Virus record (IMG/VR): IMGVR_UViG_3300046779_000920
Location: 1-30,499 of that record
Strand: one strand, 5' to 3'
From: a virus
Taxonomy: Duplodnaviria; Caudoviricetes
Length of the DNA stretch: 30,499 nucleotides
The notes under the pieces are model-generated. The model was not told the DNA's origin. It saw only the letters and a list, made by a program, of their open reading frames with translations, and searched no databases. This document shows positions 48 to 30,499 of this stretch, piece by piece; position 1 is the first letter of the stretch, and every line of letters starts with the position of its first letter. A program made the position numbers and the translations under genes.

Positions 48-106
48 TGGAAATATAATTTATATAATAATAAATATGCGGTAATCTTGATTCCGCTAGT
101 CTGAAT

Positions 107-679: not shown

Positions 680-2791
680 TTATACAATTTTTTTATAACC
701 TTTTATCTTTTGCCAACCTTTTACTCTACCAGTACCTAACCAATCGCCCCAACCATCCCATTGAGGATAAATTTTTTCATCATTTGGCCAACGAGGTATA
801 TCAATAGGTAAATTGCCAGTATTAATAAATTCATTCCATTCTTCTCTATTTTTAAGTTTTAAACTTCTAGCAAATTCTCTAGCAGATTTAAAATCTTTAT
901 AATTTTTACTTCTTTCTTGATTTGATGGAACACCATGTCCCAAATAATCTCCCCAACCTTTCCATGTTCCTTGATTACGATATTTACCTTGTGGTGCTTG
1001 TGATAAAAAATCTATATTATTATCTTTAACATAGTTAAAATATTCTGTTGAACTTTTAAATTTAAATGGTTTTATATATTGTTTAGCATCATCATATGAT
1101 AAATGTTTTTTACCAATTTCAAATGCAGAAACTATTCCATTACCTAACCAATCTGCCCAATCAACCCATTCTCCATTTTTCATATATATACCTCTTGGCC
1201 CATATGGTATTCCACTTGGTAATTCTCTTAATTTTACAAATTCATTCCAACCAGTTTGGGTTTTTATACCTAATGTATGCACATATTTTTTAGCATCTTC
1301 ATATGATAACCATTCATTATTTTTACCATTATATGTCATACAATAAAACTCTCTTCTACAATCTTCTAAAGTAGTCCAAGCAATAGTTCCAAACTTATCA
1401 TTATCTTTACGATATGCTGATTTAAAAAGGTTTAAATCTAATGGAATACCCAATTCAGTAATATTAACTTTTGGTTTTACTGTCTTACTACTTACGTTTT
1501 TATTTGGTGATTTTGATTTTGGTTTATTACTTGTCAATACTTTTGGAATAAGAATACCACCCATATTCTTACCATTGTATTTAGAATACCATTCTTTACT
1601 AGTCAAACACAACATTGCTGTCATCAAATCCACATAGTATGAAGCAGTATTCTTAGTAGCAACTTTGTAATATGTTTTTGGTTTATCAGTTTTAGATAAA
1701 CGTAACACCCTACCATACATCTGCATTAACATATCTAAGGATTGTGTAAGGGTAAAATCTACTACATTGAATAACTCTGGAATATTAAATCCTAACTTAC
1801 CTCTATCTACTGCAACTAATACCAAATATTCATCAGAATCTTTGAACTTAATAAATCCTTCACTATTGGTATCATTCTCACTATGTGATACTAAAACCTT
1901 ACCTGTCAATTCACTAAATCCATTTAGAGATTTGTAGATAGCATCTGCTTGTTTTAGGGAGTGACAGAAGATAATTGTTTTACCAATCTGATTGAATACA
2001 CTTAATACGTTTTTAGTAACTCTACTAACGTTTGGTTGTTTGATTGGATTCTTAATTCTCTTTAACATTTCCTTACAAACTGCAGTTAAAGCCTCATCGG
2101 TAGATTTCTTACTCATTTTAGAACTGGCCTTTAAGTTACCATATGTTCCATTGTAATCACTTTGTTTGAAATCGTAGGTAGATGATACTACCTCAACTCT
2201 TACATTAGTTACCTGTTTTAAATCAAATAAATCCATAACAGGAACGAATTGGAAATTAAACCTATCACCCTTCATAATGAAACGAGATGGTGTTCCAGTC
2301 AAAAGTAATTGATAGTTAGGTTTGATTTGTTTAAGGATATCAGTAATAGTTTTCTTACCATACCATTGATGTGCCTCATCTAAAATAAAGTTGTGGAACT
2401 TTGGTAGTAAATCTGATACGTTAGAAAGTGATTGTGGTAATGCAACTACTACCTGACAATCTGATTTTAAACAATCTACCAATTCTTCTTTGGTAGTTGC
2501 AACACAATAACTGAAAGAAGGTTTGAATGTATCTAATTCAGTTGAGAAGTTATCTCTTAATACTTTCATTGAATACGGAATAATCAAAGTACGTTTGTTT
2601 TTGTTTTGAGGATATGAGTAGAAAATCTCTAACTTCATAATCGCCATAAACGTTTTACCAGAGGAAGTACCTGCTGCTAATACGAAAGGTTTATCTGATG
2701 TATATTCAGATGTTAAAAACTCTTCTTGATAATTTAACTTTCGTAAACCTCGTGTTTTAATAATTTCGTTGTAAATTGATAAGTTGTTCAT
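680..2791 (-). CDS. SF2 (DEAH, ResIII-like) helicase fused to three C-terminal integrase-repeat-like units
   Basis: Walker A AAGTSSGKT, Walker B ILDEAH, motif III LTGT, motif VI QMYGRVLR; three repeats of SYxxAKxY...P...Y...WxxWxDWLG at about 725-1315. Confidence 0.85.
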   Translation of the reverse strand: MNNLSIYNEIIKTRGLRKLNYQEEFLTSEYTSDKPFVLAAGTSSGKTFMAIMKLEIFYSYPQNKNKRTLIIPYSMKVLRDNFSTELDTFKPSFSYCVATTKEELVDCLKSDCQVVVALPQSLSNVSDLLPKFHNFILDEAHQWYGKKTITDILKQIKPNYQLLLTGTPSRFIMKGDRFNFQFVPVMDLFDLKQVTNVRVEVVSSTYDFKQSDYNGTYGNLKASSKMSKKSTDEALTAVCKEMLKRIKNPIKQPNVSRVTKNVLSVFNQIGKTIIFCHSLKQADAIYKSLNGFSELTGKVLVSHSENDTNSEGFIKFKDSDEYLVLVAVDRGKLGFNIPELFNVVDFTLTQSLDMLMQMYGRVLRLSKTDKPKTYYKVATKNTASYYVDLMTAMLCLTSKEWYSKYNGKNMGGILIPKVLTSNKPKSKSPNKNVSSKTVKPKVNITELGIPLDLNLFKSAYRKDNDKFGTIAWTTLEDCRREFYCMTYNGKNNEWLSYEDAKKYVHTLGIKTQTGWNEFVKLRELPSGIPYGPRGIYMKNGEWVDWADWLGNGIVSAFEIGKKHLSYDDAKQYIKPFKFKSSTEYFNYVKDNNIDFLSQAPQGKYRNQGTWKGWGDYLGHGVPSNQERSKNYKDFKSAREFARSLKLKNREEWNEFINTGNLPIDIPRWPNDEKIYPQWDGWGDWLGTGRVKGWQKIKGYKKIV

Positions 2792-2823
2792 AATTTATTT
2801 GTTTATCTCTTAATCTTATACAG

Positions 2824-2855
2824 CTAATATACGATGATTTTGTGAGATTTCCAAA
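2824..2855 (-). promoter_or_regulatory. Bacteroidota housekeeping-type promoter for the helicase
   Basis: TTTG-N20-TATATTAG on the minus strand, one mismatch to the -33/-7 consensus TTTG-N19-21-TAnnTTTG. Confidence 0.65.
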
Positions 2856-2974
2856 CATTTTAACATATATTTTATACTATTTTTACAATAAAACGCATGA
2901 GATTGAGTATCAATTAGTTATGAAAACTAACGATTTAACGATTTTATGATTATTTTTGAGATTTCCAAATGGGC

Positions 2975-3010
2975 AAACAAAAACCCCCTCCAAAGAAACG
3001 GAAGGGGTTT
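2975..3010 (-). terminator. Intrinsic terminator downstream of bS21 and at the sRNA 3' end
   Basis: AAACCCCTTCC-GTTTCTTT-GGAGGGGGTTT 11-bp stem followed by TTGTTT. Confidence 0.8.
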
Positions 3011-3066
3011 ATACTAAGTAAAAGTAAATCGGGGTAGTTCCAATGGCGGGAGGAATTACTACCTTA
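2975..3066 (-). ncRNA. Candidate multi-target antisense sRNA (or functional 3'UTR of the bS21 mRNA)
   Basis: Hairpin GGUAG-UAA-UUCC-[UCCCGCCAUU]-GGAA-CUACC, single-stranded linker and terminator; segments perfectly complementary to start regions at 43-52, 615-633 and 29352-29364. Confidence 0.6.
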
Positions 3067-3108
3067 TGAATAAATATCGAGTAGTTTGGCTAAAACGAAA
3101 AAGTAGAA

Positions 3109-3345
3109 CTAAATTCTACTCTTTGCTTTTATTAATCTCTCTTTTTCCAATATCTTTTCTACTTTACGTTTAAATTCAACATCATTTTTTCTTGCACGTT
3201 TAATTGCTGATGGTTTGACAAAGTATTTTCTTTCTCTTAATTCAATCAAATGACCAGATGATTCTACCTTCTTCTTAAATCTTTTTAATAAAGAGGAAAT
3301 ATCCTCTCCTTCTCTTTTTTTAATTCCTACTAATGAAACACTCAT
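3109..3345 (-). CDS. rpsU: Phage-encoded ribosomal protein bS21
   Basis: GEDISSLLKRFKKKV..SG.L.ELRERKYFVKPS.IKR is the bS21 family signature. Confidence 0.93.
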   Translation of the reverse strand: MSVSLVGIKKREGEDISSLLKRFKKKVESSGHLIELRERKYFVKPSAIKRARKNDVEFKRKVEKILEKERLIKAKSRI

Positions 3346-3395
3346 TCTTTTATTTTTTTGTTATTCTTGCCCGCTTAAAATCGTTTTAATGGGTA

Positions 3396-3524
3396 TTATC
3401 TCCCTTGTCCTCTATACGCTTTTGGCTTTGGATTATGTTTGTTGTATGATGTCTTACCTGTTGGTTGAGATTTCTTTTTACCGAAACCAACTTTGGTATT
3501 TGAATTAGCTGTTTTCTTTGCCAT
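3396..3524 (-). CDS. Small basic protein with C-terminal YRGQGR motif (42 aa, absent from ORF track)
   Basis: Manual translation MAKKTANSNTKVGFGKKKSQPTGKTSYNKHNPKPKAYRGQGR*; a YRGQG terminus recurs in small phage proteins. Confidence 0.8.
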   Translation of the reverse strand: MAKKTANSNTKVGFGKKKSQPTGKTSYNKHNPKPKAYRGQGR

Positions 3525-27889: not shown

Positions 27890-27898
27890 TTTAACAAT
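27890..27898 (-). promoter_or_regulatory. ATTGTTAAA motif (candidate late promoter)
   Basis: Intergenic, upstream of terS at the start of the late region. Confidence 0.55.
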
Positions 27899-28302: not shown

Positions 28303-28794
28303 TTATTTCCAATCGTATTCATCGTTTCTCCCATCATATTCATCTTCTCTTTCCTTTTGTTCTTCCCACCACTGGTCTTTATTTCTTTCTATTAGAGTTC
28401 TTGTTTCCCATTTCCATTGCTTGTAATCTTCATCGTTCTGCATTAAATCCCAAACTCTACCATAGTATTCTCTACATTCTTCTCTACTCATATGTACCCA
28501 CTTTGGATATTCCTGTCTTATTTCATTCTTCCTATCCCAATATCTCATATAGTATTCCGATTTCTTATCGTAACAATATGGTTTACTTCTACTACTAATA
28601 TCATCTTTTCTATTTAACCACTTACCTCTTTCTTCTAATGGTCTTACTGTTCTTGCAGTTTTAGGAATGTATTTGTTTGGGTTGTGATAATACTTTCTAC
28701 CACTCTTACTCATACGAACAACGGATTTACCTGATGCACTTACATGTCCAACTTCTTTATGGTGGTGTCTATCCTTTGATTTTTCGTTATTCAT
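28303..28794 (-). CDS. Hypothetical basic, Trp/Tyr-rich protein
   Basis: 163-aa ORF overlapping the sigma gene stop. Confidence 0.7.
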   Translation of the reverse strand: MNNEKSKDRHHHKEVGHVSASGKSVVRMSKSGRKYYHNPNKYIPKTARTVRPLEERGKWLNRKDDISSRSKPYCYDKKSEYYMRYWDRKNEIRQEYPKWVHMSREECREYYGRVWDLMQNDEDYKQWKWETRTLIERNKDQWWEEQKEREDEYDGRNDEYDWK

Positions 28795-29341
28795 TACCGA
28801 ATGGATTTTGTATTTTTGATTTTAGGATTCCTTTTGTTTTTTTAACGTGTAAGAAACATGTTGCTTTACTTATTCCTACATCGTTTGCAACTTCATCTAA
28901 TGTCATATCTGAAAAATGGTAAATCTCAAATAATTTACCACTTACCCATTTAGGTGTTGCTTTCATTTCGTTTAATTCAGTCATTACTTCCCAATATGCA
29001 GTTTCAAACTTTTGGTCTGAATCTACATCATAGGGAGTATCTTCTAATTGATGATAGGTTTCTACTACATCAATATTTGTTTTTCTACCTTCTCTTTTAC
29101 GCGAGTTTAAAAATCTCGAATTAATGAATGAACGTAGATACTGTAAATTGAATGAGTCTAAATAAAATAACTTTGGGTTTATTTTCTCACCTAAGAAAAG
29201 ATAAACCGAACTTACTAAATCACATGCCTCATCATAATCTCTTGTTAGTTTATACGCAACTGCGTTTAACCAATCGTTGTGTTTGATGTAGAGTGTTTGT
29301 AACCTAATGTTATTTTCCCATTCTAAACTACCACTTATCAT
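28787..29341 (-). CDS. Sigma-70 family (ECF-like) RNA polymerase sigma factor
   Basis: Region 2-like LY.KH..WL..VAY.LT...DEA.DLV..VYL and region 4 HTH MTLDEVANDVGISKATCF..VKK. Confidence 0.8.
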   Translation of the reverse strand: MISGSLEWENNIRLQTLYIKHNDWLNAVAYKLTRDYDEACDLVSSVYLFLGEKINPKLFYLDSFNLQYLRSFINSRFLNSRKREGRKTNIDVVETYHQLEDTPYDVDSDQKFETAYWEVMTELNEMKATPKWVSGKLFEIYHFSDMTLDEVANDVGISKATCFLHVKKTKGILKSKIQNPFGNE

Positions 29342-29571
29342 TTATTTCTTTCTTCCGTTTCTTTTATAAAGTTTTTACAAACATCAACAGCTTTTCTCCA
29401 AAGATTTCCACTTGAGGGACAAGTACAAGGTTGTGATTCTCTTGTGTTTGCTATTCTTTGATATGCACCCCAAATGAAATTAGTTTGATTATCTGGTAGA
29501 AATTCTTTAATTGGTATAACTACATCTTTCAATATTTGATATTCTTCAATTGTAAATGGATGTGTATTCAT
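29338..29571 (-). CDS. Hypothetical protein with PCTC motif (probable start MNTHPF)
   Basis: ATGA overlap with the sigma gene; ATG at 29571 follows the upstream stop. Confidence 0.7.
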   Translation of the reverse strand: MNTHPFTIEEYQILKDVVIPIKEFLPDNQTNFIWGAYQRIANTRESQPCTCPSSGNLWRKAVDVCKNFIKETEERNK

Positions 29572-30357: not shown

Positions 30358-30498
30358 CTATTTTACTTTCATTGTGTTAAGAACTGGTTTGTTTTCTGAA
30401 ATCCATTGTTGAATGTATTCTCTTTCTCTTTGCATCAACTCTTTTCTATCACCTTCCCACTCTTCTAAAACATACATTGAGTTAATCATAATCTCTAC
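30358..30498 (-). CDS. 3' end of a probable GIY-YIG nuclease (partial)
   Basis: Manual translation ...YVLEEWEGDRKELMQREREYIQQWISENKPVLNTMKVK*; LEE...L..RE..YI...LN matches the GIY-YIG C-terminal half. Confidence 0.55.
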   Translation of the reverse strand, partial: VEIMINSMYVLEEWEGDRKELMQREREYIQQWISENKPVLNTMKVK

Positions 30499-30499
30499 C

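Follow-up and report, generated by a model that had tools for sequence, protein, structure and literature searches.

CopA and Inc, the antisense RNAs that control plasmid copy number, limit the synthesis of the replication initiator through loop-initiated pairing; they are fully complementary cis-antisense RNAs with a single target. As far as the available part of PMC12197685 goes, the known RNAs that repress phage genes are mostly cis-antisense, tied to lysogeny and from enterobacterial phages, and sar of P22 and OOP and aQ of lambda, which repress development-deciding phage genes by mRNA pairing, are transcribed opposite their targets. The same partial source describes PreS of lambda and VpdS of VP882 as trans-acting phage small RNAs that affect phage replication; both are Hfq-bound and favour replication, PreS by acting on host dnaN. 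The c4 RNA of P1 and P7 is phage-encoded, about 80-90 nt long, and exposes two seeds, one of which occludes an initiation region while the other gives phage specificity, its targets lying elsewhere than opposite the RNA gene (PMC5320573, seen in part). RalA, from the cryptic rac prophage, is a trans-encoded, Hfq-dependent RNA with a short (16 nt) complementarity to the mRNA of a single toxin, a DNase (PMC4041452, likewise in part).

Here we analyze an entire virus record of 30,499 bp, hereafter the window. It carries, at 2979-3066 on the minus strand, a conserved and structured element with complementarity to the start regions of two genes of its own phage. We take this element for a predicted small RNA gene, the product of which probably works in trans to repress, by antisense pairing, a putative replication initiator gene, rep (start at 619), and an endonuclease-like gene (start at 47). 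Comparison among related phages gives good support to the reality of the element and, by co-variation, to two of the three targets that an earlier note on this DNA had proposed.

Genome context and probable host

The minus strand holds all of the main genes: terminase, portal, tape measure, head protease, bS21, helicase, rep and the gene that starts at 47 (gene 47). Along this strand the late genes are followed by bS21 (3109-3345; PF01165, E=1e-11), which is the final gene of the late operon, and then by the RNA element, the helicase gene (680-2791), rep (107-619) and gene 47. A sigma-like gene (PHROG 1740), for whose product no cultured phage was matched, is located at 28787-29341 on the same strand. 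The earlier note had seen no repressor or integrase, and Pfam and PHROG scans of the ORFs of the window agreed in matching neither. No integrase was found in 5/5 related records either, and a scan of GTDB genome contigs gave no prophage, its sole return being one 3.3-kb contig.

The host is probably a member of the Bacteroidota. This assignment draws on the putative capsid, whose sole cultured matches are Nonlabens phages, on the bS21 profile, whose best PDB match is 7JIL (presumably a Flavobacterium ribosome), on the rarity of Shine-Dalgarno-like words (1/39 window starts) and on a TAnnTTWG box at the helicase gene. In the portions of the sources at hand, TAnnTTTG is given as a consensus (PMC9723704) and Bacteroidota are described as ignoring Shine-Dalgarno sequences (PMC9976891).

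The C-terminus of the helicase contains repeats of a W-x-x-W-x-D-W/F-L-G motif, and among relatives the helicase gene varies both in its presence and in the strand that carries it. Upstream of it, the segment 2830-2970, common to many related phages, includes two alike TTTGGAAATCTC boxes (~2960 and ~2855). The position of bS21 is also variable in the family: it is inverted with respect to the late operon in three loci (L037:6563-6766, L110:619-807 and L034:730-930), and in another a bS21-like gene is found downstream of sigma (L129:5820).

A conserved, predicted RNA element with an exposed loop

The predicted RNA is about 88 nt long, its 5' end being placed from an upstream promoter-like motif. 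It folds with a minimum free energy of -29.3 kcal/mol (z=-3.18) into hairpin 1, a weak linker hairpin and an intrinsic terminator (2979-3010), in this order. Hairpin 1 (3033-3063, with its stem at 3058-3063/3033-3038) displays the loop sequence GCCAUU (3042-3047), the constant seed, which complements AAUGGC start codons. A variable specificity arm at 3016-3027 complements the rep 5'UTR. According to the earlier note all seeds were unpaired. This is the case for GCCAUU and the linker (mean unpaired probabilities of 1.00 and 0.78), but not for a GGAA segment (0.01), and only in part for the proposed sigma seed (2992-3004; 0.49), the first 5-6 nt of which, about half, are locked inside the terminator stem in the fold.

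Compensatory changes were seen at 6/20 pairs among five close homologues (against 0/500 shuffles, and 0-3 when slid), a small sample in which the structure was taken from that very alignment; the outer stem of hairpin 1 has changes on both sides at 4/7 pairs. Among the variants listed for four runs, none falls within 3039-3054, with the exception of a one-base insertion just behind 3038, and the five terminator substitutions of run X9 every one preserve the stem.

Two other readings of the element were rejected. A small peptide encoded on the plus strand behind GGAGG (35 aa, start ~3067) is not favored as the product, as the ORF lacks conservation: in four relatives it measures 57, 4, 9 and 2 aa. 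The CCUCC of the loop is not a convincing anti-Shine-Dalgarno sequence: CCUCC and GCCAU do not come in the order that pairing with a Shine-Dalgarno sequence plus AUG would require, and by sequence inspection CCUCC was found in the closest clade only. The c4 antisense RNA, an Rfam family, was not among the 11 weak matches (E<=10) that Rfam returned for 2700-3500, and in 14 related loci only a tRNA reached the gathering score.

Complementarity to start regions within the window

All three complementarities described in the earlier note were verified exactly. GCCAUUG (3041-3047) and UUACUUUUACUU (3016-3027) together complement 615-633 contiguously (7+12 nt), which amounts to 19 nt from -14 to +5 of rep, across the start at 619. 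GCCAUUGGAA (3038-3047) complements 43-52, a stretch of 10 nt that spans the gene-47 start codon. CUUCCGUUUCUUU (2992-3004) is complementary to 29352-29364, a stretch that lies 11-23 nt upstream of the ATG of sigma at 29341. When the 39 start regions of the window were ranked, rep came first (-15.0 kcal/mol) and gene 47 second (-9.0 kcal/mol); the sigma site was fifth with accessibility included.

The matches exceed shuffled controls, at P values between 0.002 and 0.01. With 3000 dinucleotide shuffles scored against the same 39 start regions, P was 0.0017 for a two-helix cover of at least 19 nt, 0.0037 for three starts with at least 10 nt each, and 0.0097 for a single helix of at least 13 nt, the best single helix in shuffles having a mean of 9.0 nt. 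Other 86-nt windows of the genome reached the 19-nt two-helix cover in 5/1512 cases and the three-start count in 8/1512. Genome-wide, the RNA would form four helices of at least 10 nt (shuffle mean 3.4), and three of these are at starts. The GCCAUU seed by itself fits the 8/39 window genes that start with ATGGC.

The element in related phages

Related loci were gathered by bS21 and sigma searches, and 49 of them were scanned for non-coding terminators of the early region, blind to the targets. One element was taken in 34 loci; L024 was added from a GCCA-aware scan, L182 was dropped as a duplicate, and in loci with several terminators the element was picked by hand with the motif known. A non-coding unit of ~90-115 nt, made up of one or more hairpins and a terminator, was taken in 35/49 related loci. 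Manual inspection of the 13 loci that were negative by the scan criteria found eight without the element, some of them truncated or rearranged, and recovered it in five, where the endonuclease start ranked 1 (L138), 1 (L148, with the endonuclease labelled by a zinc-finger motif), 3, 4 and below 4.

GCCA is present in 32/36 RNAs (5.5 expected), in 29 of them with an accessibility of at least 0.7, a count biased upward because the choice of elements was partly GCCA-aware. All four RNAs without GCCA occur with endonuclease genes that lack ATGGC. In 14 cases the element has the placement seen in the window, behind the late operon (class 1), and in 22/36 it lies directly before the endonuclease-slot gene (class 2); the element has shifted between two genomic positions with its features retained. 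The association with bS21 made in the earlier note is accordingly incidental, and L035 and L036 have bS21 with no RNA element behind it. The joint alignment of class-1 RNAs has 57% column identity with the seeds unaligned, and any common ancestry of the clusters is conjectural. RNAalifold recovered only the terminator in the L010 cluster, owing to alignment slips.

A possible second small RNA was noticed in the early region, a shorter non-coding unit of hairpin plus terminator with CAU in some of the loops (L020:7093, L022:1388, L023:8044, L138:7980, L152:1241 and L180:4803).

Pairing with the start regions of the same phage

We scored pairing over start regions from -25 to +12 with a home-made model in place of IntaRNA (ungapped helices, Turner stacks, two-sided accessibility, up to two helices). 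For seven genes N-terminal homology pointed to an internal ATG, which was taken as the start when scoring; the rep of L037 and the slot gene of L157 were left out as doubtful. With 20 RNA clusters at 66% identity, not fully independent of one another, and 5000 permutations, the RNAs were predicted to pair better with rep of their own phage than with rep of other phages (-8.6 vs -5.7 kcal/mol, p=0.0002; 16 loci, 13 clusters), and likewise with the endonuclease gene (-7.1 vs -4.6 kcal/mol, p=0.0002; 32 loci, 16 clusters). Nine control genes, sigma among them, gave no own-phage signal (p=0.31-0.88).

The signal was also obtained in loci uninspected at discovery (rep p=0.012, 8 loci; endonuclease p=0.0008, 25 loci), with the 5'UTR only and the AUG excluded (p=0.0002 and 0.0018, respectively), and with GCCA RNAs and ATGGC starts only (p=0.0004 and 0.0016). 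The start of rep was in the top three of its own locus in 12/16 loci (2.6 expected) and that of the endonuclease gene in 22/32 (4.9 expected). When slid along the genes, the signal peaked only at -20..0 (z -2.35 for rep and -1.21 for the endonuclease), which is not what neutral duplication predicts. The pairing with the rep and gene-47 starts, put forward in the earlier note from the window, is thus phage-specific across the family.

Nine rep genes without a structured leader form UTR helices of 9-14 bp with their own RNA, against other-phage means of 6.7-8.2; these leaders are unrelated in sequence, and the genes belong to several protein families. Even within the rep family of the window the leaders are unrelated, yet the own-RNA helix is 10-13 bp (window 12, L026 13, L112 12, L114 12, L171 10). 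Seven rep genes with a structured leader of their own gave no UTR-specific pairing, and the 14-bp rep match of L030 is a likeness of one terminator to another. L030 and L032 have nearly the linker of the window with the rep match missing, and the own pairing of L032, L113, L162 and L164 ranks 11th-16th against the targets of other phages. In the largest cluster (the L010 group) the endonuclease gene pairs only weakly, with little beyond the 5-7-nt seed, and in L151 and L171 this pairing is absent. In L111 (10633, 10884, 11658 and 13465) all three early genes start with ATGGC and pair with the RNA, and an HNH gene that directly follows sigma has a further long match over its start.

The two target genes

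We infer that the gene at 107-619 encodes a replication initiator. The 170-aa protein had no Pfam or PHROG hit and its fold search returned nothing at E<=0.001; a profile comparison matched it to the replisome-organizer family PHROG 6251 (probability 88.6%, E=2.7e-6). In the ESM Atlas it matches viral clusters; DnaB_2, Lin1244_N and Phage_rep_org_N came up there as sub-0.9 leads only. In relatives, initiators from a number of PHROG families (2562/38715, 6251/1701, 4707 and 428) occupy the same slot.

Gene 47 (1-47) runs off the contig, its C-terminal part being at 30358-30499 and its middle missing from the contig. The N-terminus is identical at 13/15 positions to the L030 orthologue, the C-terminal part matches the same orthologues, and these match the endonucleases of PHROG 1035/2340/2255. 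The slot is occupied in relatives by endonuclease-VII/GIY-YIG-like or NUMOD4-HNH proteins. What had been listed simply as the next gene is upheld as to its start-region pairing, and is now given an endonuclease-like identity.

A structured leader of ~100 nt, with a hairpin and U-run that end a few bases before the rep ATG, was observed in nine relatives (L002:4310-4415, L030:720-825, L032:12185-12290, L036, L113, L148, L162, L164 and L180) and is absent from the window. The loop of its first hairpin complements that of its last, and which half bears which sequence differs from phage to phage (L002 and L032 vs L030, L036 and L113), a pattern that suggests a kissing-loop switch. The rep genes with this leader are those unmatched by the small RNA. 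A strong hairpin without a U-run is present in the window at 82-100 (minus strand), between the rep stop and the promoter-like motif of gene 47, and a similar one is seen in L030.

Probable transcription of the element

The RNA is preceded by the promoter-like motif TATTTATT (3069-3076, minus strand; class TAYDTATD), a putative promoter that includes the TATTTAT at 3070-3076 already pointed out in the earlier note. TAYDTATD sites in the window stand before the RNA, rep (646-653), gene 47 (69-76) and terS. In the family they precede 11/14 class-1 RNAs, 28/32 endonuclease genes, 7/16 rep genes and 18/29 terS genes. A terminator-like hairpin with a U-run lies over the bS21 stop codon (3098-3124, minus strand), between bS21 and the RNA, and a hairpin of this kind covers or follows the bS21 stop in 11/11 bS21 loci folded. 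This hairpin and the separate promoter-like motif lead us to argue for an RNA that would be its own transcript and not just the bS21 3'UTR, with read-through possible. The own promoter is thus favored over the plain 3'UTR, the other origin that had been suggested; a 3'UTR-derived small RNA fits poorly with the intervening hairpin and with the 22/36 elements before an endonuclease gene. In the one RNA run covered, no contig lay over the element, an outcome that speaks neither for nor against the transcript.

TTGTTAA is found in 5/9 late intergenic gaps of the window (minus-strand positions 27897, 25408, 21253, 18818 and 5770), with eight gene-strand copies altogether, and is a candidate promoter for the phage sigma-like protein. 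The shorter TGTTA precedes 21/22 class-2 RNAs and 1/14 class-1 RNAs; it also precedes 20/29 terS genes in relatives. The window RNA has the motif of its targets and is without TGTTA, so for the window late timing is conjectural. A housekeeping-like TAnnTTWG box is found at 9/22 class-2 RNAs.

Proposed mechanism and alternative readings

We propose that the RNA pairs over the start codons of rep and gene 47 and would so block the loading of ribosomes. The exposed GCCAUU loop would nucleate on AUGGC, and the variable linker could then zip onto the A-rich 5'UTR, giving 19 bp on rep. In Bacteroidota such a leader would carry the upstream adenines that serve initiation in place of a Shine-Dalgarno sequence. 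More tentatively, the RNA might be a brake on the synthesis of initiator and nuclease that grows as infection proceeds, because 21/22 class-2 RNAs follow the late-operon TGTTA motif and because the RNA of the window closes the late operon, after a hairpin that may leak, and has its own TATTTATT. Class-2 RNAs would rise late from a late promoter, and class-1 RNAs from their own motif plus read-through.

It is quite possible, though rather less likely than not, that a large family of uncultured and apparently repressor-less Bacteroidota phages of ~30 kb end their replication phase with one trans-acting RNA, the arm of which is re-fitted to the leader of whichever gene occupies the slot. If true, these phages would have a late-to-early switch that needs no protein and suits hosts without Shine-Dalgarno pairing, and a constant anti-AUGGC loop with a re-programmable arm would serve unrelated initiators or selfish nucleases.

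The main rival reading has the RNA made early or constitutively, as a protein-free dormancy or immunity element of the c4 type, which would hold replication off in a carrier state and exclude close relatives, with immunity specificity set by the variable arm. The constant and variable seeds do parallel b' and a' of c4 (PMC5320573, in part), scans matched neither repressor nor integrase in the window and no integrase in the five related records, the upstream motif is common to the window RNA and its targets, and 9/22 class-2 RNAs have the housekeeping-like box. We nonetheless regard this reading as unlikely, since no temperate or plasmid sign was seen, the GTDB scan gave no prophage, and the late-operon motif is ahead of nearly all class-2 RNAs.

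The RNA could alternatively be an antitoxin-like restraint, similar to RalA, on a selfish or toxic endonuclease, with the rep pairing secondary. Two unrelated nuclease types do hold the slot, most RNAs lie directly before the slot gene (22/36), and the endonuclease signal is own-phage specific (p=0.0002). This is improbable given that pairing is longest and strongest at rep (window -15.0, L026 -20.0, L111 -14.9, L151 -14.0) and that in L111, where the RNA is present, the slot has no detected endonuclease homologue.

We assign little probability to the full model of the earlier note, in which the RNA represses rep, gene 47 and sigma together and so jointly silences replication and late-gene activation; as a trait of the family it fails. 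The 13-nt sigma match is perfect, with P about 0.01 against shuffles, and the seed is identical in L030. Yet 29352-29364 (minus strand) is a doubtful target, located within the coding sequence of the previous gene. Half of the seed is taken up by the terminator stem, the RNA of L032 has a mismatch to the 13-nt site that this phage retains, and three of the five terminator substitutions of run X9 alter the seed (3/13 positions). Across the family, sigma pairing did not differ between own and other phages (p=0.56), and sigma was in the top three of its own locus in 4/30 loci (4.5 expected). It is rejected on these grounds as a family-wide target. We prefer to read the match as chance or as a lineage-restricted extra, and sigma is outside the conserved circuit. 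In five loci (L024:2510, L130:9733, L123:4721, L129:4520 and L018:6095) the top start is that of a small gene immediately upstream of sigma; in the window the stop of this gene and the ATG of sigma overlap (29338-29341). Within one subclade the RNA might reach sigma indirectly, though the small gene as a whole gave no family signal (p=0.31).

It is very improbable that the element is only a terminator or 3'UTR whose matches are neutral inverted duplications or a by-product of a U-rich RNA meeting A-rich leaders. The genome is AT-rich and shuffles do produce helices of considerable length (the 9.0-nt mean above), but the own-phage tests contradict this reading, with specificity limited to two genes and to -20..0; hairpin 1 has compensatory changes, and the element moved yet kept its features. 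Scarcely credible is a GCCAU loop that mainly targets host mRNAs or a protein, with the phage matches a side effect: in L030 and L032 the linker is retained though no phage match goes with it, and AUGGC starts are common (8/39 in the window), but the variable arm follows the UTRs of the phages when the AUG is left out (p=0.0002).

Comparison with known antisense RNAs

No description of this RNA was found in the literature searched. Six supplementary files of PMC10690425 held no match, and three more may list an unnamed candidate; the words 'small RNA' do not occur in the available parts of the bS21 papers PMC9723584 and PMC6375957. The repressor of rep and gene 47 that we favor would be a trans-acting, multi-target RNA of Bacteroidota phages, with targets named by co-variation alone, which makes seed and compensatory pairs available for work in F. 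johnsoniae. At issue are the means by which small phages halt replication when they have no repressor, the containment of nuclease genes by phages, and the recognition of start regions by small RNAs where, as in this phylum, Shine-Dalgarno sequences are ignored (PMC9976891, in part).

The element is non-coding, with conserved structure, its own terminator and an accessible seed that co-varies with a distant locus, as expected of a trans-encoded small RNA. Like sar, OOP and aQ it would repress development-deciding genes by mRNA pairing. It differs from them in being encoded on the strand of its targets, 2.4 and 3 kb away, with 10-19 bp of pairing, so that complementarity must be kept by co-evolution. 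With CopA and Inc it shares a predicted loop-initiated limit on an initiator, but here in trans and with two targets. PreS and VpdS likewise act in trans, whereas the predicted targets of the window RNA are the start codons of its own phage. RalA is also trans-encoded and phage-derived with a short complementarity to a nuclease mRNA; the window RNA has at least two predicted targets, and the RalA model scored it at chance level (13.1 bits, with a cut-off of 170 bits).

The comparison with c4 is the closest. The window RNA has no Rfam match, no three-stem cloverleaf and probably no 5' end cut by RNase P, and it ends in an intrinsic terminator; no lysogeny system is visible around it, and where c4 acts on an antirepressor operon, it is predicted to act on a replication initiator and a nuclease, with a constant seed that is anti-AUGGC. 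The model and fold tests for c4 thus fail, yet c4 of P1 and P7 is the RNA that the window element appears to work most like: both are phage-encoded, of similar length and directed at targets away from their own locus, and both pair one seed over the initiation region, here the GCCA that recurs throughout the family, and use the other, here the arm that matches its own phage, for specificity.
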